Assembly: GCA_003226295.1 (NCBI GenBank)
Contig: CP029803.1
Span: 166,226-230,225 of the forward strand
DNA from: Candidatus Moanibacter tarae
Lineage (GTDB): Bacteria > Verrucomicrobiota > Verrucomicrobiia > Opitutales > UBA2987
Direction of reading: 5' to 3'
DNA: 64,000 nucleotides
Both the position numbers and the translations under genes were made by a program. Of the stretch, positions 4,502 through 54,998 are shown piece after piece (the first letter of the stretch is position 1; each line of letters starts with the position of its first letter). A model generated the notes under the pieces. It searched no databases. It was not told the origin of the DNA and saw only the letters and a program-made list of their open reading frames with translations.

Positions 4502-5656
4502 ATGATATTAGACCCAGCGAAAAAAATCTACCCGGAATTCAGTCTTAACCGTCTCTTAGGCACTGTTTTTGCTCCCGAAGGAGGCGAGAAAGTAGCGATT
4601 TTAATCGACCTTGAGGATCCATCGGAGGTGAAAAACTTCGGCTTTCTTGAAAATAAGAATCTATCCATTCAACGTAACGCCTTTGAAAAATTCTATCAGG
4701 TCTTCGAGAGAGGAGAGTTGGATGATCTCGGTCTCAAGGCAGGTGATCTTTACGCCTATAAGATTACTGGGGGAAGTAATCTAGATCTTCCCCATGACTT
4801 GTATGATACGGGCGGGAGGCATCTAAGATTTGCGTCAGATATCTATCCGAGTTATGATATCATCCTTTGTATTTCGACGTATTCTGCGACAGCACCTCTC
4901 ACCGCTTCAGCTAAGAAATTCGGATTCCGAGGGGCTACTCTCCACGGCTTAAATGATGTGATTCTATCTTCCGGACTCTGCGTCGACTACAATGAGGTAA
5001 GCCGGGACGCGGAAAAATTAAGGTTGGGTATGACGCGAGCAGATCAGTTTGAAATCGACTACGAAATAAATGGAGATTCATGTAGGTTGATTCTGAAATG
5101 CAACGGGCAAGAAGCACAAAAGAGCCATGGCCTCTGCCGAGGGAATAGGCCGGATGTGGCGAACTTGCCGGCAGGAGAAGTCTATTTCGTACCGGAAAAT
5201 GCTGAGGGCGAATTTCCCATGCAATACAGCGATGGAACATTGGGGATCATGCAAGTTGAGGGAGGTAGGATTCGCCGTGCTGCTCTCCTGAGGGGATCTA
5301 ATGAAACAATTGAAGCTCATAATCGGAAACTTGAATCTGATCCTGTTGTGGGTGAGATCGGAGAATTAGGTTTCGGAACACAGGTTCTACCGGTCTCTGG
5401 GCGCGACATTCAGGACGAAAAGATTCTGGGTACCGTTCATGTAGCCACGGGACGCAGTGACCATCTCGGGGGGCACCTAACTCCGGATCTTTTTTCTGAA
5501 CATCAGAATGCGACTCACGATGATATTCTCTTTGCTCCCTTTAAAACACCAGATATTAAAATTCCTGAGGTGCGAATGCAACGTGATGGGGTGACAACGA
5601 TAATCCTGGCAGGGTACCAACCTTCAGAATATCTGATTTCGCTCCTCGATAGCTAA
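4502..5656 (+). CDS. Hypothetical protein, possibly a distant M29 (aminopeptidase T/S)-like metallopeptidase
   Basis: 384 aa. NLPAGEVYFVPE and DEKILGTVHVATGRSDHLGG resemble the conserved PxGEVFxxP and EKIxGxxHxAxG blocks of thermophilic metalloprotease M29. The assignment is weak. Confidence 0.35.
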   Translation: MILDPAKKIYPEFSLNRLLGTVFAPEGGEKVAILIDLEDPSEVKNFGFLENKNLSIQRNAFEKFYQVFERGELDDLGLKAGDLYAYKITGGSNLDLPHDLYDTGGRHLRFASDIYPSYDIILCISTYSATAPLTASAKKFGFRGATLHGLNDVILSSGLCVDYNEVSRDAEKLRLGMTRADQFEIDYEINGDSCRLILKCNGQEAQKSHGLCRGNRPDVANLPAGEVYFVPENAEGEFPMQYSDGTLGIMQVEGGRIRRAALLRGSNETIEAHNRKLESDPVVGEIGELGFGTQVLPVSGRDIQDEKILGTVHVATGRSDHLGGHLTPDLFSEHQNATHDDILFAPFKTPDIKIPEVRMQRDGVTTIILAGYQPSEYLISLLDS

Positions 5657-33727: not shown

Positions 33728-35692
33728 CTAGGGTACGGCAGTCTTCTGTTGTTGGCGAAGCACTCTTCGGTCTCCTTGTCGCAGGGTGATGCCTTCATGG
33801 TCTAATTTCTCCAGGATAGGTAGGGCAATTCGTCGACTGGTCCCGAGGGTGAAGCGAATCTCGCTTACAGTCGAGGGACCATTTAAACGGATGAGATCTA
33901 TGATTTTATCTTTTGCAAGGTTGAAGGAAGACTTTGACATAACGATTTTGTCTGAGACTTCGACAACTTCATTGGATTGGATAAGAAAAGTAAGGGTTTC
34001 AAGATAGTGTGAATCAGAGGCCAACTCTTTCCGCGATGGAGGTTCCAGAGGTTTGTTATTGAGGGAGCTGCGTATTTTATCAGCTAGTGGTCTAAGGCGT
34101 TCGGGAAGTGCAATTTTGTGATTTACTCTCATGAGAAATACACCCTGTTTCTGAAATCCCGATCGAAGCAGTCTTTCCAGCAAAGCTTCAAATATATCTT
34201 TATGGCGATTCTCAATACGAATAGTTCGTCGGAGCTTACTGAGCGTGAGACCGCCACGTTCCGGGTTTGTACTGTGTTCTTGGTCAATAGCCTTGGAGGC
34301 GGTGTGGAATAATTTGTCCCACCATTTCCTTTCAACAAGTAGGGGCCCTAGGAGTATAGCGGCTCCGGATTCTGCTAGTCCTCGAATTGTTTCGGCGATC
34401 TCATCAGCACTGAAGATGGACTGGAGCAAGACTTCGGTGGGCGAGATAGCTAGGTCGCGCAGAAGCTGAGAGCTGATCCAGTGATCTAATTTCCCGAGTG
34501 ACTTGGCACGTATTTCGAGGAAATTTTTATGAGCGCAATCTTGGAATAGGTAGGGACGGGATTGAGGGTAAAGAACAATTCCTCCTCCAACGGTAGTTTT
34601 CCCTGGCCAGTCTCGAATAATAAATCGATCACCGGCAAAAAGAAAAAGCGGGGACTCTAGGCGAAGTTGGGCAAGTGTACTTTGCCCTGGGGAGAGATCC
34701 TGTTTCTCAAAAAATCGCATCCTTGCGGGTACATTTTTGCTTCCGTGGTGGATTCGGACGCGGCTTCCATCAGTGAGATGACGGATTCCCCTTGGTAGCG
34801 ATCTCGCGAAATCAGGTGATCGCTCGATGAGGGCATCGGCTGTTTGGGAGGGACTCCCTAGTTCTGGTAAGGTTACTACATCACCTTTTTGGATCTTTGT
34901 TGGACCTTGTGAATCAGGCGTGGAGACGTGTGCCAGGCAGGTGGCAGTTCGCATGCTAGGCCGACTCTCTTCAAGATGTTGGTTTACAGATTGTATATTG
35001 CGAATTCGGGATTCGATGCCTGAGGGTTGGATGAGGATTTGCTGGCCACGAATCAAAGTTCCACCGGTTAGGGTTCCCGTGGCGACTGTCCCAATGCCCG
35101 GAATTGAAAAGACGCGATCGACGGGCAGGCGTGGCTTTCCAATATTGCGTGGGAGAGGGGTGTCTTTAAGGACCCTTCCCAAGGCAATCTTTAAGTCCTC
35201 GATCCCCTCTCCGGTTACTGATGATGTTCTTACAATGGGAGCCTTAGCTAAGCGGCTCGTGTTTAGTCTCTTTCTAATCTCATTGATTTTTAAAGTGTTA
35301 GTTTTATCCGCAAGGTCTGACTTGGATAGTGCCACAACGCCACGTGAGATTCCAAGATAAGAAAGGATCTCGAGATGCTCTTCCGTTTGAGTCATCCATC
35401 CGTCGTCAGCTGCGATAACGAGAAGACAGAGATCGATCGATCCAACGCCAGCGACCATATTCTTGACAAAATCTTCGTGTCCGGGAACGTCGACAATTCC
35501 AAGATTAAAGATGACAGAAGGGTCTTCAGGAGACCTGATATCGAGAAAGGCAAAACCGAGATCAATCGTAAGCCCTCTTTTCTTTTCTTCAGGAAGGCGA
35601 TCTGGATCCACACCCGTTAATGCCTTTACCAAGGAGCTTTTTCCGTGGTCAACATGACCGGCGGTTGCAAGGATTAAATTATGATTAGTCAC
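33728..35692 (-). CDS. selB: Selenocysteine-specific translation elongation factor SelB
   Basis: 654 aa. It has GTPase motifs (AGHVDHGKSSL, DVPGHEDF, SKSD) followed by long winged-helix C-terminal domains. It lies 27 nt downstream of selA. Confidence 0.9.
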   Translation of the reverse strand: MTNHNLILATAGHVDHGKSSLVKALTGVDPDRLPEEKKRGLTIDLGFAFLDIRSPEDPSVIFNLGIVDVPGHEDFVKNMVAGVGSIDLCLLVIAADDGWMTQTEEHLEILSYLGISRGVVALSKSDLADKTNTLKINEIRKRLNTSRLAKAPIVRTSSVTGEGIEDLKIALGRVLKDTPLPRNIGKPRLPVDRVFSIPGIGTVATGTLTGGTLIRGQQILIQPSGIESRIRNIQSVNQHLEESRPSMRTATCLAHVSTPDSQGPTKIQKGDVVTLPELGSPSQTADALIERSPDFARSLPRGIRHLTDGSRVRIHHGSKNVPARMRFFEKQDLSPGQSTLAQLRLESPLFLFAGDRFIIRDWPGKTTVGGGIVLYPQSRPYLFQDCAHKNFLEIRAKSLGKLDHWISSQLLRDLAISPTEVLLQSIFSADEIAETIRGLAESGAAILLGPLLVERKWWDKLFHTASKAIDQEHSTNPERGGLTLSKLRRTIRIENRHKDIFEALLERLLRSGFQKQGVFLMRVNHKIALPERLRPLADKIRSSLNNKPLEPPSRKELASDSHYLETLTFLIQSNEVVEVSDKIVMSKSSFNLAKDKIIDLIRLNGPSTVSEIRFTLGTSRRIALPILEKLDHEGITLRQGDRRVLRQQQKTAVP

Positions 35693-35719
35693 AGGAATTT
35701 GCCGGACTTAATCAGAAAT

Positions 35720-37114
35720 TTACTTTGAATTTTCAGTCCAGGACGGTTTAGATTTCAGTGCTGATCGAATGGCGCAGGAAAGTGACTCGTCTTGACTTTC
35801 AAAGACTGTACGTAAGTCGAGCCGAAGTTGCTGGTTTGAGATATATCCTATGACAGGAGGGGTTCCCTTCCGTAGTTCAGAGGTGAGTAGTTCGAGGTTT
35901 TTTGCTGTCGACGCTAAATCAATGGTCACCGATGGTATACTTGATTTCGGTAGGGCGCCTCCTCCGATTTGCGATTCTCCATCGTTAATGTTAATTTTGA
36001 TCGGCAGGTCTTTTAGGCTCCGAGCGATTTTTTCCCCACGTTTCCGAAGCTTTGCAACGGGATCATTAAGCATTTGGAAAACCGGTATTTCTTTATTAGA
36101 CCGTTGGCTGAGGTAAAGTTCGGCGGTGGACTGCAGGGCTGCGAGGATGAGTTTGTCGGAGCGTAAGGCTCGGAAAAAAGGTTCCTTTTTGAGGGCATCG
36201 ACAATCACTTTTTTCCCTGCTATTATGCCAGCCTGGGGACCACCCATCAATTTGTCACCACTGAAGCAGACCAAATCAACACCCTGGCGAAGCACTTCGG
36301 CAGGAGTAGGCTCGTGTTCCAGAGATGTGGTCTGAGCGGTATCGACTAGGGCACCGCTACCAAGGTCTTCGATCATTGGTAGTCGATGGGTATTGGCCAA
36401 TAGTTTGATATCCTCAGATGTCGGAGATTTGACGAAACCCTCCATAGCAAAATTGCTTCGATGCACCTTGAGTATGAGGGCTGTATCTCGGTTGATCGCC
36501 CTTTCATAATCTTTCACGGTAGTCCGGTTGGTAGTTCCGACTTCACGGATGTCGGCACCGCTTGACTCAAGGATCTCCGGTATTCGGAAGCCGCCTCCAA
36601 TTTGGATGAGCTCTCCCCTTGAAATGATGACGCTTTTCTGGTCCCCAGATGTAAAATGTCGGATGACTAAAACAAGAGCGGCAGCACAGTTGTTAACTAC
36701 GATTGTGCTCTCGGATTGGCACAGAATAGAGAGGCACAGCTCGAGATATTGACCTCGATTTCCTCGATTTCCGGTGGGCAGATCCATTTCAAGATTGCTA
36801 TATGTTTGTCCGATTTCACTCATATACTGAACGGCTTGGGGTGCGAGGGGGGCACGCCCAAGATTGGTATGAACAATGACTCCGGTTCCGTTTACAGTAG
36901 GCTTTATCCTGCTCAGCTCGATAGCTTTGAGTTCCTTTCCGATCTGAGTGACGATCAAATCGAAGGGAGGAATCTTTCTCTTTTTTCGAATAATATTCAA
37001 ATACTCCCGAACAACGGAGAGAACGATTTCGTGCGGAAGCTCTCTGAAAGCAAGCGCCTGGATGATTTTATCGACGGAAGGTATGGTGCGCCGGTCGCTA
37101 TCGGGGTTAGTCAT
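35720..37114 (-). CDS. selA: L-seryl-tRNA(Sec) selenium transferase SelA
   Basis: 464 aa. It has IPSVDKII, NNCAAAL and the PLP-lysine block FSGDKLMGGPQAGII. Confidence 0.9.
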   Translation of the reverse strand: MTNPDSDRRTIPSVDKIIQALAFRELPHEIVLSVVREYLNIIRKKRKIPPFDLIVTQIGKELKAIELSRIKPTVNGTGVIVHTNLGRAPLAPQAVQYMSEIGQTYSNLEMDLPTGNRGNRGQYLELCLSILCQSESTIVVNNCAAALVLVIRHFTSGDQKSVIISRGELIQIGGGFRIPEILESSGADIREVGTTNRTTVKDYERAINRDTALILKVHRSNFAMEGFVKSPTSEDIKLLANTHRLPMIEDLGSGALVDTAQTTSLEHEPTPAEVLRQGVDLVCFSGDKLMGGPQAGIIAGKKVIVDALKKEPFFRALRSDKLILAALQSTAELYLSQRSNKEIPVFQMLNDPVAKLRKRGEKIARSLKDLPIKININDGESQIGGGALPKSSIPSVTIDLASTAKNLELLTSELRKGTPPVIGYISNQQLRLDLRTVFESQDESLSCAIRSALKSKPSWTENSK

Positions 37115-39549: not shown

Positions 39550-39580
39550 AGGTCCCTCTCGACCCAGGGGCGGTTTTGTT
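39550..39580 (+). terminator. Candidate intrinsic terminator of selD
   Basis: The stem gtccct/aggggc (6 bp including a G-U pair) has an 8-nt loop and is followed by ggttttgtttc. Confidence 0.35.
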
Positions 39581-39707
39581 TCCCGCGGATTACCCCACGG
39601 GCTCTAGATGTCTCTTGATCGATTTGGGGTAAATCAATCCTACATTTCTTACTCTCAATCCACAGGATACGAACTAGTGTTTAATCTCGATTAGATCAAG
39701 CGGAACA

Positions 39708-39804
39708 TGGCGGAGAGGGTAAGAATCGAACTTACCTCGACCTTCGGAGAAGGCCGACAACGGTTTTGAAGACCGCGGGGACCACCAGGCACCCTTCACT
39801 CTCC
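39708..39804 (-). tRNA. selC: tRNA-Sec (anticodon UCA), with encoded CCA
   Basis: The reverse complement reads GGAGAGUGAAGGGUGCCUGGUGGUCCCCGCGGUCUUCAAAACCGUUGUCGGCCUUCUCCGAAGGUCGAGGUAAGUUCGAUUCUUACCCUCUCCGCCA. The anticodon loop is CU-UCA-AA on a CGGU/ACCG stem. The long variable arm has a 9-bp stem (UCGGCCUUC/GAAGGUCGA). The extended D-stem has a 4-nt loop, the T-loop is UUCGAUU, the discriminator is G, and the 3' end is CCA. Confidence 0.9.
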
Positions 39805-39841
39805 GAATAATCCGAAGATGGGTCGTATCTTCGGATTATTC
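39805..39841 (-). other. Perfect 14-bp hairpin bridging the selenoprotein stop codon and the tRNA-Sec 5' end
   Basis: On the + strand, gaataatccgaaga (39805-39818) and tcttcggattattc (39828-39841) are exact reverse complements with a 9-nt loop. In the minus-strand RNA, the stem begins with the GA of the UGA stop and ends at the base before tRNA G1. No U-tract follows on the minus strand. On the + strand it is followed by agagttttt. Confidence 0.85.
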
Positions 39842-40070
39842 AGAGTTTTTCGCGGATTGATTTAATAATCGAATCGGGCTCAGGAAAGCAGCCAGTTGCC
39901 AGTTTTGAGTAAATCTTCTCACCGTTCAAACTGACTTCGAATGCGCCCCCCCTGGAAGGGACGAGCCGAAGGCCGATTATCTGTTGCTTGAACTGTAGGA
40001 TTCTTTCCGTCAGACTGACGGCTTGTAGTTCATAGCCTCAAGCGGCGCAGTATTCGATTTCAATTTCCAT
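39840..40070 (-). CDS. SelW-like (Rdx family) selenoprotein; the in-frame UGA at 40040..40038 is read as selenocysteine
   Basis: My translation is MEIEIEYCAA-U-GYELQAVSLTERILQFKQQIIGLRLVPSRGGAFEVSLNGEKIYSKLATGCFPEPDSIIKSIREKL*. Three family hallmarks are all present: the IEYC-x-x-U redox motif, GGAFEV, and G-x-FPEP. It is missed by the ORF track because codon 11 is TGA. It lies adjacent to selC and selD. Confidence 0.85.
39990..40037 (-). promoter_or_regulatory. Candidate bacterial SECIS element
   Basis: The mRNA downstream of the UGA is GGCUAUGAACUACAAG-CCGUCA-GUC-UGACGG. A perfect 6-bp stem (40007..40021) starts 16 nt after the UGA. Its apical loop starts with G. It is flanked by possible GAACU/AGUUC outer pairing. 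Confidence 0.5.
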
Positions 40071-40403
40071 CCTGTTTCAAAGGATGTGAAGGAACAGAGG
40101 CTGAGTCAAGATTTGGAGAGAATGTGATTCCAAACGAATTGGGGATAAGAAACAGAAGTTTTCCCATCTGTATCTTTGCAAGATACCTGGAAATCACAAT
40201 ATTGCCTCTTCTCTTTAATTCCAATGGTTTAAAATCCAGGTGAAACTCAATTTTTATGGTACGAGTACAAGACCGATAAAGGCGATCGATAGATGACAGA
40301 CTAAAAGAAAGCGACATAATCTTGGCCATCGAGCTGAGTTAGAGCCTTCAAAACTATATATTGTAGGGCTATTAGGTAGGTAAACTTAAACTCTAATAAG
40401 ATT

Positions 40404-40433
40404 TTGACAGGTTAGAGGAGAAAATCCTTGATA
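40404..40433 (+). promoter_or_regulatory. Weak candidate sigma70-type promoter for the coxM-like operon
   Basis: TTGACA (40404-40409), an 18-nt spacer, then TTGATA (40428-40433), in the AT-rich region about 125 nt upstream of the ATG at 40560. This rests on pattern only. Confidence 0.2.
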
Positions 40434-40559
40434 AAAGATGTTACCCGTAGATCGTAGTAGTCAGCGACCGATTCCGGATCCGATACAGAAAAGGTTTGGT
40501 TTTCCGGAATTAATTGTGTGAGGTGTGAGTTTAAATTCTGTAGTGGATAGATTGATAGT

Positions 40560-41471
40560 ATGAAAGACTTTCAGTTTTGCAGTCCGAGGTCCCTGGACGA
40601 AGCAGTGGGTTTGATGTCGGAAGAAGGTGTCAAAGCACGAGGTTTTGCCGGGGGTACCGATGTCTTGGTTCAATTGCGAGCGAAACGCTTTGAGATTGAC
40701 CGACTGGTTGATATGAAACAGGTCCCGGAATTGAATGACCTTCAATTGGAGTCCACCAAGGGTCTGCGGATAGGTGCATCTGTCCCGTGTCACCAGGTTT
40801 ACGAAGACAAGAGCATTTGTTCGGTTTACCCCGGCCTTATCGATTCGATTGCGATTATTGGAGGAATCCAAATCCAGGGTCGGGCCAGTATAGGAGGAAA
40901 TCTTTGCAATGCATCACCGAGCGCAGACTCCATTCCTACTCTAATCGTTTATGGTGCCCAATGTGAGATTGCTGGAAAAAACGGCATGCGTTCGATCGGA
41001 GTTGAGGACTTTTGTGTCGGGCCAGGGAAGTCGGTTTTGGATGAAGGCGAAATATTAGTGGCGGTTAATATCCCGACCCCGGCGCCAAATTCTGGTGCCC
41101 ATTACCTCCGGTTTATTCCTAGAAATGAAATGGATATAGCGGTAGTCGGAGCTGGAGCAGCGGTCGAGCTAGAAGAAGATTTGCAAACAATTAAAAAAGC
41201 GAGAATCGCTTTTGGTGCGGTTGCTCCTACCCCGCTTTTGGCGAGTGAAGCGGGTGATCTCTTATCTGGGAAAGAAGCCGGAGAAGAGTCATATGAAGCA
41301 GCAGCTTCAGTGGCACAGAGTATTGTTAGCCCTATCACCGATATGAGAGGGACTAAGGAGTTTCGCATTCACCTGACGGGGGTGTTGACGAAGAGAGCGC
41401 TTAGGGGCGCGGTTGCCCGAGCTAGGGGTGAGTTTGTACCCAATGCCGTAGAGGAGGCCAAAGCCTCGTAA
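40560..41471 (+). CDS. Molybdenum hydroxylase family FAD-binding (medium, CoxM/XdhB-like) subunit
   Basis: 303 aa. It has FAGGTDVLVQLR, ASIGGNLCNASPSADS and MRGTKEFR, typical of the FAD_binding_5/CO_deh_flav_C architecture. Confidence 0.85.
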   Translation: MKDFQFCSPRSLDEAVGLMSEEGVKARGFAGGTDVLVQLRAKRFEIDRLVDMKQVPELNDLQLESTKGLRIGASVPCHQVYEDKSICSVYPGLIDSIAIIGGIQIQGRASIGGNLCNASPSADSIPTLIVYGAQCEIAGKNGMRSIGVEDFCVGPGKSVLDEGEILVAVNIPTPAPNSGAHYLRFIPRNEMDIAVVGAGAAVELEEDLQTIKKARIAFGAVAPTPLLASEAGDLLSGKEAGEESYEAAASVAQSIVSPITDMRGTKEFRIHLTGVLTKRALRGAVARARGEFVPNAVEEAKAS

Positions 41472-41511
41472 TAGGGAACAGGGAAAAGGTAATCTCAGCG
41501 GGAGAAGAATT

Positions 41512-42015
41512 ATGGCACGAAAGACACATGTTCAAACGAAAATAAATAGGGAGCAGACGGAGTTCCTTTGTGAAGCAAGACAGAGTCTCCTTGAAGTTTT
41601 ACGAGAGGAACTCGGTCTTACGGGTACTAAAGAAGGTTGTAATGACGGGAATTGTGGAGCCTGTTCAGTGACCTTGGATGGCGTGTTGGTGGATTCGTGC
41701 CTTGTCTTGGCGACAGAAGTTGAAGGACGTGAAGTCGGGACTGTAGAAGGTATTGCTACCGCAGACGGTCTCCATCCATTGCAGCAGGCTTTTCTCGAGG
41801 AGGCCGGATTACAGTGTGGAATTTGCACTCCAGGATTTTTAGTTGCAAGCAAAGCGCTACTGGAGAGAAATCCGAATCCAACCGAACATCAGGTAAGGCA
41901 TTGGCTGGCTGGAAATTTATGTCGTTGCACGGGCTACGACAAGATCGTCAGATCCGTCCTCAAAGCAGCAGCAGTGACTGGAGACAAGGGAGCCGCGAAG
42001 GACGGCACCAACTGA
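41512..42015 (+). CDS. Molybdenum hydroxylase family [2Fe-2S] (small, CoxS-like) subunit
   Basis: 167 aa. It has two cluster motifs, CNDGNCGACSV and QCGICTPGF...CRCTGY. Confidence 0.9.
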   Translation: MARKTHVQTKINREQTEFLCEARQSLLEVLREELGLTGTKEGCNDGNCGACSVTLDGVLVDSCLVLATEVEGREVGTVEGIATADGLHPLQQAFLEEAGLQCGICTPGFLVASKALLERNPNPTEHQVRHWLAGNLCRCTGYDKIVRSVLKAAAVTGDKGAAKDGTN

Positions 42016-42048
42016 TTGGTTGCTCAATTGTTTTCCCCGGGAGAGAGT

Positions 42049-42312
42049 ATGCCCAGGGTTTTTATACCCCCTCTTCTCCAGCGTTTCACCTCAGGTGAGG
42101 ATTTCGTTGAGATCGAAGGTTCTACGGTTAGAGAGGTCGTCCAGAATCTTGAAGTGGAGTACCCAGGGATTCGGGATAGAATCTGTCAGGAAGACCGAAT
42201 AAATCCTGGCATCGCAGTTGCGGTTGATGGACAGATTTCCAACGAAGGGATGCGGCGAAAGGTTGGACCGGACAGCGAATTACAGTTTATACCTGCTATC
42301 GGCGGGGGCTAG
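42049..42312 (+). CDS. MoaD/ThiS-family ubiquitin-like sulfur-carrier protein (CysO-like), C-terminal GG
   Basis: The sequence runs MPRVFIPPLLQRFTSGEDFVEIEGSTVREVV...ELQFIPAIGGG. The ATG at 42049 is preceded by GGGAGAGAG. The ORF-track start is an upstream in-frame TTG at 42016. Confidence 0.75.
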   Translation: MPRVFIPPLLQRFTSGEDFVEIEGSTVREVVQNLEVEYPGIRDRICQEDRINPGIAVAVDGQISNEGMRRKVGPDSELQFIPAIGGG

Positions 42313-52806: not shown

Positions 52807-53832
52807 ATGATCTCCGCGACCGATTTTGAAAAATTACCCATCCGCGTTGGGCTAGGTCAATTTAACATTCCTACCGCTACCGGGGAATTACTCTTATTCA
52901 TTAAGCAGTGCGGGGTAGATGATGTTCAACTAAATAGGGTGGAGTGGTCTAGACAGGATCTTTGGGAGTACGAGGAATTGGCTTCGCTACGTAAAATGAT
53001 CGAGGATTACGAACTGCGGTTAATGGCTTTAGAGAATGTGCCTTACTCTTTTTACGATAAGATCATGCTTGGTCTGGATGGCCGGGAGTTACAGTTGGAG
53101 AATATGTGCCAGACAGTGCGTAACATGGGGCAGGCAGGAATTCCGATTTTGGGTTATCACTTCATGCCTACTGAGGTTTGGCGAACATCGCGAACCACCC
53201 CAATCCGTGGAGGTGCGAAAACGACCGCGTTCAATCTAGATGTAGCGATATCCGCGAAGGCGGATCCTCTTCCAAAGAGAGGAAATTTCATATCTGAGCG
53301 CGAGATTACGGAAGAAGAGATGTGGGAAAACTACGATTGGTATATGGAGCGGATCCTTCCCGTTTGTGAAGAATCCAATGTTAGAATGGCGTTGCATCCC
53401 GACGATCCTCCCGTGAACTATCCCCTTGGAGGTGTGGCTCGGATATTTCGGAACTTTGAAAATTTTGATCGCGCCATGACAAAGTTCAATAGCCCAATGC
53501 ACGGCCTCAATTTCTGTCACGGATGTTGGTCGGAAATGCGAGCCGGTGCGGGAGTCATCGACGCGATTCGACATTTTGGGGTGCAAGGGAAAATTTTTTA
53601 TGTTCACCTTCGTGATGTTCAGGGGCGAATCGATGATTTTACCGAGTGCTGGATAGGTGAAGGCAATTCGGATATAATCGAGGTGATTCGAACCCTAAAG
53701 GATTCCGGATTCAGAGGTTTTATGATTCCCGATCATGTCCCGGTCATGAATGATGATGGCTGGTACAAGCAGCGGGGCCGAGCCTATACGGTTGGCTACA
53801 TGAAGGCAATGTTGGACGTTTTGGCCAGCTGA
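52807..53832 (+). CDS. Mannonate dehydratase (UxuA) family protein
   Basis: 341 aa xylose-isomerase-like TIM barrel with the UxuA-type block MALHPDDPP. Confidence 0.65.
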   Translation: MISATDFEKLPIRVGLGQFNIPTATGELLLFIKQCGVDDVQLNRVEWSRQDLWEYEELASLRKMIEDYELRLMALENVPYSFYDKIMLGLDGRELQLENMCQTVRNMGQAGIPILGYHFMPTEVWRTSRTTPIRGGAKTTAFNLDVAISAKADPLPKRGNFISEREITEEEMWENYDWYMERILPVCEESNVRMALHPDDPPVNYPLGGVARIFRNFENFDRAMTKFNSPMHGLNFCHGCWSEMRAGAGVIDAIRHFGVQGKIFYVHLRDVQGRIDDFTECWIGEGNSDIIEVIRTLKDSGFRGFMIPDHVPVMNDDGWYKQRGRAYTVGYMKAMLDVLAS

Positions 53833-53866
53833 TTCCTAGGTTACAATTGTAAAGGGGGAAGTGAAT

Positions 53867-53895
53867 CATCCGAAGCTGAAATAGAGCTTCGGATG
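53867..53895. other. Perfect 11-bp intergenic inverted repeat between convergent genes (possible bidirectional terminator or RNA stabiliser)
   Basis: catccgaagct and agcttcggatg are exact reverse complements with a 7-nt loop. No clean U-tract follows on either strand. Confidence 0.5.
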
Positions 53896-53942
53896 AAGAG
53901 TTGTTTCCGATTTTTATGGATTAAGTAGAGATTCAGGTCCTG

Positions 53943-54998
53943 CTATTTGCCTTTTCTTGGTCCGATCATTCCTCTTTCGAGCATATCTAGAAAAGGGGAG
54001 TCCTCAATGTCGAGAGGCAGGTCGACGCGGGAGCGCCTTCGACTGGATTCATAGGCACTGAAGATCACTTCGGTAGCTTGGAGAGCTTTACGGCTGCTCA
54101 ATTCCGGTTCTCTTCCAGTCTTTAGAGCGTCGACAAGATCGGTGATGGCAGAGGTAAATACTATCGGCATGTGTTGGCTCTTCAGTTCTCGGATCTCAGG
54201 TTCTTGCCAGCCCCTGTATCCTTTCGCCAGGAAGCGGAGCGCAGGTCCATCAGGGACGGTCACTTCAATAAGGCCATCGGAGCCCATAATCCTAAGAGCA
54301 CATGTTCTTTTATCGATTCCCGTATCTAGTAGACCTGTAACGCCGTTATTGAATTGGATTCGGCAGATAGCCTGATTTTCCATGTCCACTCCAAATAGTT
54401 TGTTCTCGGTCTGGCTGTTGATCTGGGCAATAACCCACGAAGCGGGTTCGTCATTATTGTAGAAAAACATCATATCAATCCAATGCGTTCCCCAGTCAAA
54501 GATATTGCTACAGTAACCTTCGAAACGGTGGATCTGGCCGATCGCACCGGAATGTGCGATTTCCTTGGCTTTCCGAAAAACTTCCCCAAAACGTCGTTGG
54601 TGATTGAATGTTAGCTGGACGCCTGAACGGTTACAGGTTTCGACCATAGACTTTGCTTCACCATAGGTTGGCGCCATTGGTTTTTCACAGTGAATTGCCT
54701 TAACGCCGAGGGTAGCGGCCTCTTTTACCACCGGGGCATGGAGAGGGATCCATAGACAGACACTGACCATATCGAGTTTTTCCCTAACAATCATTTCCTG
54801 GTAGGATTCATAGATTCTAGGTACATCGTGTTGGGAAGCGAATGCCTTTGCATTTTCCCGAACAATATCTGCAACCGCGACGAGTTTAGTGTCGTTACAC
54901 CCTTTATACCCGACGGCGTGATGATGGGCAATCCCATGCCCGGTTGAGCCTTCGTAATTACTTGGTCGACCGCAGCCGATGATACCAACTTTGTACAT
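53943..54998 (-). CDS. Gfo/Idh/MocA-family NAD(P)-dependent oxidoreductase
   Basis: 351 aa. It has the N-terminal Rossmann motif VGIIGCG and the EKP motif (HCEKPMA). Confidence 0.85.
   Translation of the reverse strand: MYKVGIIGCGRPSNYEGSTGHGIAHHHAVGYKGCNDTKLVAVADIVRENAKAFASQHDVPRIYESYQEMIVREKLDMVSVCLWIPLHAPVVKEAATLGVKAIHCEKPMAPTYGEAKSMVETCNRSGVQLTFNHQRRFGEVFRKAKEIAHSGAIGQIHRFEGYCSNIFDWGTHWIDMMFFYNNDEPASWVIAQINSQTENKLFGVDMENQAICRIQFNNGVTGLLDTGIDKRTCALRIMGSDGLIEVTVPDGPALRFLAKGYRGWQEPEIRELKSQHMPIVFTSAITDLVDALKTGREPELSSRKALQATEVIFSAYESSRRRSRVDLPLDIEDSPFLDMLERGMIGPRKGK

Follow-up and report, generated by a model that had tools for sequence, protein, structure and literature searches.

A tRNA-Sec gene abutting a SelW-like selenoprotein gene through a 15-bp hairpin in Candidatus Moanibacter tarae, and the conserved selW-selC gene pair of Verrucomicrobiota

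When considering how a cell might couple the production of a tRNA to that of an mRNA, the experimental precedent is found in Escherichia coli, where the secG mRNA is followed, after a spacer of 14 nt, by leuU, and a single cut by RNase P generates both the 5' end of the tRNA and the 3' end of the mRNA (PMC2241853). The secG mRNA released in this way has no hairpin at its end, shows a half-life under 30 s and is degraded by PNPase and poly(A) polymerase (PMC2241853); this fast decay, therefore, shows what a 3' hairpin would buy for such a message. In the selenocysteine (Sec) system, selA-selB-selC operons are known in which the gene of tRNA-Sec, selC, lies inside an mRNA operon (PMC1794560, PMC5330540), and selC has also been described as nested in, or overlapping with, selB, an arrangement for which a trade-off between tRNA processing and expression of SelB has been proposed (PMC8124441). 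Here we analyze a stretch of 64,000 nt from Candidatus Moanibacter tarae (Verrucomicrobiota, Opitutales; contig CP029803.1, positions 166,226 to 230,225), hereafter the window, in which selC follows, on the same strand, the gene of a SelW-like selenoprotein (selW, for short), with nothing but a hairpin, H1, in between. An earlier reading of this DNA, made from the letters alone (below, the sequence-only reading), proposed that selC is transcribed as a 3' extension of the selenoprotein mRNA and is released by RNase P, and did not recognize such an arrangement as described. In the literature that we searched, there is, indeed, no account of a selC that follows a selenoprotein gene or is enclosed by two of them, and none of a spacer made only of a hairpin that touches the +1 position of a tRNA.

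The conserved selW-selC(-selD) module is a more solid, and also a more interesting, finding than the lineage-specific hairpin with its putative role. Among the best 80 SelW-like loci of reference genomes, a same-strand tRNA-Sec gene is located directly downstream only in Verrucomicrobiota, namely, in an uncultured marine Opitutales metagenome-assembled genome that is the nearest genome match to the window (L001), in a member of the Chthoniobacterales (L008), and in Ca. Udaeobacter (L022). At the SelW-like loci of Bacillaceae and Actinomycetota in the same set, as well as at that of a homologue with cysteine (Cys) in place of Sec (L003), an adjacent selC is absent. A scan of metagenomes with a 44-nt pattern that represents the 5' half of this type of tRNA-Sec, and so avoids the bias of a search by SelW, yielded 120 loci. 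A SelW-like gene with a CxxU motif is found immediately upstream of tRNA-Sec, on the same strand, in 103 of the 111 loci with at least 350 nt of upstream sequence (L099 being recovered by tblastn); the comparison of selC synteny in related genomes, which the sequence-only reading had called for, thus bears out the pairing. Of 98 assessable oriented loci, taken from the 120 loci of the scan together with the window, L001, L008, L022, and a further contig, L201, 87 have a same-strand selD downstream of the tRNA. In 94 soil loci, this selD itself contains an in-frame UGA (…SSCAG-U-A[SA]KL…; e.g., L110:4500-4600 and L124:2685-2760) at a position that is occupied by Cys in L008. The usual arrangement, hence, is selW(Sec)-selC-selD(Sec), in which the tRNA is flanked on either side by one of its clients, and within this verrucomicrobial clade the module is nearly universal. 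The window and L001 represent a derived, rearranged form, in which selD is a fusion gene, in the window of the Cys type, on the strand opposite to selC.

The spacers between selW and selC measure 5-278 nt. Among them are ten distinct sequences of only 5-14 nt, too short to accommodate both a terminator and a promoter between the genes; the 14-nt class is unstructured. Many soil spacers contain long hairpins that are built of inverted 7-nt runs (AACGYTC / GGACGTT) and are followed by a pyrimidine- and U-rich tract that extends to a few nt before G1 of the tRNA, other spacers contain direct 7-nt repeats (CGCAATC, TTTCAGC), and in the marine contig L202 a long hairpin (GTGCGGA/TCCGCA), without a U-tract, stops 3 nt short of the tRNA. 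These spacers are hot spots of tandem 7-nt repeats in general (GGACGTT/AACGYTC, CGCAATC, TTTCAGC, GTGCGGA; L082, L097, L106, L137, L178, L198, L202, and others); the inverted repeat blocks in some of them form hairpins of 20-40 bp, and the length ranges over the entire 5-278 nt even between close relatives. The possibility of one conserved spacer structure was rejected, the folding energies of the sense and antisense strands being alike.

Contigs that cover the pair of soil relatives are found in several RNA libraries. For L110, a widespread soil type with a 77-nt spacer, contigs from three libraries join the selW coding sequence, the spacer, and the tRNA (X48, 4725-5112; X50, 4742-4937; X51, 4701-4871). 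For L124, with its spacer of 14 nt, selW is covered in four metatranscriptomes, with zero depth on both flanks, which indicates that the signal comes from RNA and not from DNA carry-over; a contig from X72 (2338-2502) extends past the stop codon and through the spacer to include 30 nt of the tRNA, and in other contigs the 5' end of the tRNA is preceded by 96-167 nt of upstream sequence. The junction-spanning contigs, being assembler products of low depth and not reads, support read-through in the relatives without proving it. A different picture emerges from the plant-associated metatranscriptome X49, where coverage of the 10.5-kb L110 locus is essentially confined to selW and selC and includes two contigs of exactly read length (151 nt; 5077-4927 and 4911-4761) at a depth of about 10. 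This contig pair, as from paired reads, implies a discrete selW RNA of ~317 nt, apparently the dominant one in this relative, which is predicted to run from 17 nt before the GTG start to the U-tract, 5 nt past the stem and 9 nt before G1 of the tRNA. Such a 3' end could result from termination, or else RNase P could have cut the RNA and an exonuclease could then have trimmed it as far as the hairpin. In the relatives, termination or trimming at the hairpin thus appears to coexist with read-through.

In the window, tRNA-Sec is the sole tRNA that ARAGORN detects in the 64 kb (tRNA-SeC, anticodon tca), and it matches the full Rfam model RF01852 (positions 1-91) with 63.4 bits, the gathering score being 47. 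Its minimum free energy (MFE) structure is a cloverleaf of -42.8 kcal/mol with a 9-bp variable arm and a G discriminator (G73) before the encoded CCA; the seventh acceptor pair is a U-C mismatch. The tRNA-Sec genes of the window and L001 are 95% identical; the 3' CCA is encoded in the former (…CTCCGCCA, 39708-39712) and not in the latter (…CTCCGCTG, L001:6355-6365). The SelW-like open reading frame (ORF) extends from an ATG at 40070 to a stop UGA at 39842-39840, with the in-frame Sec-UGA as codon 11 (40040-40038), the last position of a CAAU (CxxU) motif at codons 8-11. With Sec replaced by Cys, residues 2-74 of the 76 match the Rdx family with E=3.7e-21; the L001 counterpart is 91% identical, and the Sec-UGA is conserved in 106 homologous loci. 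A candidate bacterial Sec insertion sequence (SECIS) hairpin begins 16 nt past the Sec-UGA, and its equivalent in homologues, GCCGTCAGTTTGGCGGC, appears conserved by eye. A second Sec residue at the stop codon, by read-through, was considered and rejected: the frame enters the tRNA and there is no SECIS spacing. In public annotations, the SelW-like proteins of this clade (seven homologues, P0001-P0007) are all fragments of 47-57 aa that start past the Sec-UGA; systematic mis-annotation affects the family, which protein databases under-represent.

The arms of H1 occupy positions 39841-39827 and 39819-39805. The 5' arm starts at the G of the stop UGA, so that the last 2 nt of the stop codon are shared with the hairpin, and the 3' arm ends at 39805, with zero nt between it and G1 of the tRNA at 39804; in all these coordinates the sequence-only reading was correct. 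It also recognized the stem as perfect, but gave it 14 bp and a 9-nt loop, leaving out the closing U-A pair, with which the stem reaches 15 bp and the loop shrinks to 7 nt. The pairing can be further extended to 19 bp (39801-39845; CUCU with GGAG, including one G.U pair) at the expense of tRNA nucleotides 1-4. The folding energy of H1 is -27.5 kcal/mol (z = -9.6), with 0 of 200 shuffles folding as well, and H1 is the longest perfect hairpin of the window, 20 mononucleotide shuffles of which yield 12 bp at most. On the minus strand, as had been noticed before, the hairpin is followed by GGAGAGUG, without a U-tract, and thus lacks what defines a Rho-independent terminator on the selW/selC strand. 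Compared to L001, the only other genome with a hairpin of this type, 1 of 30 stem positions has changed (A>G, with a U.G pair kept), as against 3 of 7 loop positions and about 16-23% of the positions in the flanking non-coding DNA; this suggests purifying selection on the stem, the evidence being modest (binomial P about 0.003-0.05). Contigs L201-L203, which carry truncated homologues, have different spacers, and runs X4-X7 gave either an identical sequence or unrelated tRNA-Sec contexts and no further close relatives of H1. The DNA runs that contain the window sequence are marine metagenomes, and in two runs from marine samples, X2 and X3, this genome is present at 14-19x.

Features of the window that are considered in the text
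Feature	Position	Strand	Basis or remark
selB	33728-35692	minus	gene context
selA	35720-37114	minus	gene context
Pyr_redox_2-SelD fusion gene, 769 aa	37183..39492	plus	convergent with selC and selW
Terminator-like hairpin with GGTTTTGTTT, ~60 nt past the selD stop	39552..39581	plus	consensus scan
tRNA-Sec (selC), anticodon UCA, CCA encoded	39708..39804	minus	ARAGORN, Rfam RF01852
Hairpin H1, 15 perfect bp, 7-nt loop	39805..39841	minus	occupies the entire 35-nt spacer
H1 palindrome read on the plus strand, stem-loop then AGAGTTTTTC	39805..39851	plus	terminator-like; consensus scan
SelW-like (Rdx family) selenoprotein gene, 76 aa	39840..40070	minus	sequence reading, Pfam PF10262
Candidate bacterial SECIS stem-loop, CCGUCAG/CUGACGG	40007..40021	minus	palindrome and fold
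Hairpin H2, 12 bp, 7-nt loop, tail AGAGTTGTTT	53866..53896	plus	related in sequence to H1

From this anatomy, the conserved synteny, and the junction-spanning contigs of the relatives, we infer, with a probability of about 0.55, that the SelW-like gene and selC form one minus-strand transcript in which the hairpin is an inefficient terminator, and that RNase P cuts at G1 and leaves a hairpin-capped mRNA. The pair in the window is predicted to fit such a scheme, with both genes on the same strand and a spacer of 35 nt that would not terminate the transcript ahead of the tRNA. The spacer of this Opitutales lineage has shrunk to a single 15-bp hairpin without a sense-strand U-tract, and, for lack of this tract, RNA polymerase would mostly read through H1 into the tRNA. 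Cleavage at G1 would then free tRNA-Sec and leave the selW mRNA flush-ended in a stable 15-bp 3' hairpin, which would shield the selenoprotein mRNA from 3' exonucleases. In relatives that possess a hairpin with a U-tract, a hairpin-capped selW mRNA could arise via partial termination, with read-through supplying selC and selD. The precursor can adopt two nearly isoenergetic conformers, namely, the 19-bp hairpin without the acceptor stem (-64.7 kcal/mol) and the 15-bp hairpin with the full cloverleaf (-63.1 kcal/mol); since the latter lies no more than 1.6 kcal/mol above the MFE, formation of an RNase P substrate is feasible.

A number of observations weigh against this reading. The spacer is not conserved across lineages, in others of which it has no hairpin or has a hairpin with a U-tract, and no overall sense-strand folding bias is seen in the spacers (mean -37.7 vs -36.8 kcal/mol, Wilcoxon p=0.17). 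Nucleotide -1 is paired in H1, which can also take over positions +1 to +4 of the tRNA, and this may hinder or slow RNase P. A weak -10-like hexamer, AATAAT, at 39840-39835, inside the 5' arm, is a possible promoter of selC, and H1 resembles H2, a plus-strand terminator-like element. As for the RNA, none of the libraries searched contains selW or selC of the window; the metatranscriptome from the same sample, X21, covers only neighbouring plus-strand genes (40440-40618 and 41647-41812), and the marine RNA runs contain tRNA-Sec of other organisms only. In the relatives, the contigs across the junction are only 2-4 deep, and RNA-library contigs can contain DNA; the discrete RNA of X49, the best-expressed library, implies that much of the selW RNA is without the tRNA. 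Hence, the earlier proposal of selC as a 3' extension of a selenoprotein mRNA has fared well with regard to the gene pair and the bridging contigs of soil relatives, and less so with regard to the hairpin, which only L001 shares, and to the selW RNA that ends in a U-tract. In contigs from the marine metatranscriptomes X29 and X30, tRNA-Sec of other organisms is flanked by 41-58 nt on the 5' side and by as much as 158 nt on the 3' side; this suggests that other marine taxa also have long precursors of tRNA-Sec, unless the contigs stem from carried-over DNA.

The same palindrome looks different when read on the plus strand. H2, GAATCATCCGAAGCT / 7-nt loop / AGCTTCGGATGA, followed by AGAGTTGTTT, has 13 of 15 arm bases, the 7-nt length of the loop, and the AGAGTT of the tail in common with H1; it is located between convergent genes, 34 nt past the stop of the plus-strand gene at 52807-53832 and 47 nt past that of the minus-strand gene at 53943-54998, which, as judged from sequence, would be the location of an ordinary plus-strand terminator. 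Because H2 is related to it, H1 can be regarded as a member of a local family of terminator-like palindromes with the U-tract on the plus strand; the two may represent a terminator or palindromic-element family that is specific to this genome. A dispersed repeat, on the other hand, was rejected: at up to 2 mismatches, the H1 arm has H2 as its sole other copy in the window and none in the 203 loci compared. The sequence-only reading had added that H1 could stop antisense read-through from selD. Given the terminator-like AGAGTTTTTC and the plus-strand terminator position of H2, this suggestion is due roughly equal weight, and the plus-strand form of H1 probably also stops residual antisense transcription from selD. 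What argues against a main role of this kind for H1 is that selD has a terminator-like site of its own: whereas H1 lies 313 nt from the selD stop, the hairpin at ~60 nt is probably the primary selD terminator, and its orthologue in L001, with GATTTTTCTC, has changed stem bases that still pair.

The explanation that competes most directly with co-transcription is that H1 is an intrinsic terminator, on the plus strand or bidirectional, that ends selW and/or antisense selD transcription, with selC being transcribed from a promoter in the end of the selW coding sequence or in the hairpin, and the zero-nt contact being a matter of compaction. The terminator-like plus-strand tail of H1 and its kinship to H2 speak for this view, as do the relatives that have a hairpin with a U-tract between selW and selC, the selW RNA of one library ending just there; the AATAAT hexamer would supply the promoter. 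Against it stand the lack of a minus-strand U-tract, the conserved terminator-like hairpin with a U-tract that selD already possesses in both the window and L001, and the RNA-library contigs that span the selW-selC junction in relatives. The hexamer has no -35 element, the promoter scan calls nothing there, and in the relatives with spacers of 5-14 nt, or with a U-tract that reaches to a few nt from G1, there is no intergenic room for a promoter of the tRNA. The sequence-only reading, too, had found no convincing promoter for the tRNA, and our consensus scan for sigma-70-like promoters detects none on the minus strand between 37000 and 41000; this carries little weight, however, as the promoter of the SelW-like gene escapes the same scan. 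An extended -10 promoter at TGAATAAT was rejected, its TG being one base out of register and a -35 element missing. Altogether, we regard termination at H1 combined with an embedded selC promoter as unlikely, if still worth serious consideration.

It seems very improbable that H1 acts, instead, as a processing or regulatory switch, either through a cut of the RNase III type or through the 19-bp form, which would sequester tRNA nucleotides 1-4 and delay maturation, the delay being possibly tuned by a ribosome at the stop codon. Such a role would make use of the near equality in energy of the two conformers and of the overlap between the stop codon and the 5' arm, and the very long spacer hairpins of soil relatives, some with perfect runs of ~20 bp, would suit RNase III. 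H1 itself, however, with 15-19 bp, is at or below the usual length of RNase III substrates; the CUCU/GGAG extension is known from two sequences only, too nearly identical to show covariation, and in most relatives the hairpin lies tens of nt from the stop codon, so that coupling to the ribosome is not general. We give equally little credence to a neutral insertion of a small repeated palindromic element that is functionless on the minus strand. Two related copies in 64 kb, and the rapid turnover of the spacers of this pair, which gather repeats in relatives, speak for such an origin; yet, the stem is far better kept than the loop and the flanking non-coding DNA between the window and L001, in either genome the hairpin is fitted precisely to the interval from the stop codon to G1, and, besides H2, the window holds no further copies at up to 2 mismatches.

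A more far-reaching version of co-transcription, which we find improbable, is that selW(Sec)-selC-selD(Sec) is a self-sensing selenium operon, where the production or maturation of tRNA-Sec (and, in relatives, of SelD) is gated by Sec decoding of the same RNA. With the Sec-UGA at codon 11, ribosomes would reach the stop codon, which in the window overlaps the hairpin, only if Sec-tRNA is available, and, on arrival there, they would keep polarity from affecting the transcript or would remodel the hairpin.

As for the surroundings of the pair, the SelW-like gene is preceded by a divergent intergenic region of 490 bp (40071-40559), where a TTGACT hexamer at ~40109-40104, conserved in L001, may represent the -35 element of selW; the sole ORF of this region (40060-40329, 89 aa) has no Pfam match. 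Beyond it, a molybdenum-hydroxylase-like gene cluster on the plus strand (40560-42312), divergent from selW, adjoins the sel cluster. It encodes FAD-binding and 2Fe-2S subunits of a molybdenum hydroxylase of the xanthine/CO dehydrogenase family, plus a ThiS-like protein. SelD has been linked to selenium-dependent molybdenum hydroxylases.

If a selenoprotein mRNA is, indeed, the source of selC, the cell would tie its supply of the decoding tRNA to the expression of that tRNA's own clients, and in most relatives tRNA-Sec would sit between two selenoprotein cistrons. Such a coupling is undescribed for the selenocysteine system, and its hosts are among the most abundant Verrucomicrobiota of soil (Udaeobacter-like) and of the sea. 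The series of spacers, with no hairpin, with a hairpin alone, and with a hairpin plus U-tract, offers natural material on the mRNA:tRNA ratio and on the stabilization of an mRNA after RNase P cleavage. In addition, selC and UGA-interrupted SelW-like genes can be annotated with the help of the gene pair, which is a strong genomic marker of both.

Among the known systems, secG-leuU is similar in that a protein gene is followed, after a short spacer, by a same-strand tRNA, and its spacer length of 14 nt recurs in soil relatives. Unlike the unstructured spacer of secG-leuU, the spacer in the window is a 15-bp hairpin, and the tRNA decodes the own UGA of the upstream gene. With the selABC operons and the selB-nested selC, the window shares a tRNA-Sec that is, here putatively, part of an mRNA operon of the Sec pathway, is presumed to be excised, and has proposed effects on the flanking cistrons. 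Unlike in selABC, where the partners are selA and selB, the upstream partner here is a client selenoprotein, with selA and selB located elsewhere (33728-37114), and the downstream partner in most relatives is a Sec-containing selD. With Rho-independent terminators and 3' stabilizing stem-loops in general, H1 has in common a stable stem-loop at the 3' end of a coding sequence, a U-rich tail, albeit on the plus strand, and a sister element, H2; unlike such terminators, it lacks a U-tract on the strand of the gene that it closes, and the next base is already the +1 position of a tRNA. Thus, the earlier view of the arrangement as undescribed applies to its parts unequally: the partner gene and the zero-spacer hairpin are new, whereas secG-leuU and selABC are earlier examples of a tRNA that extends an mRNA at its 3' end.

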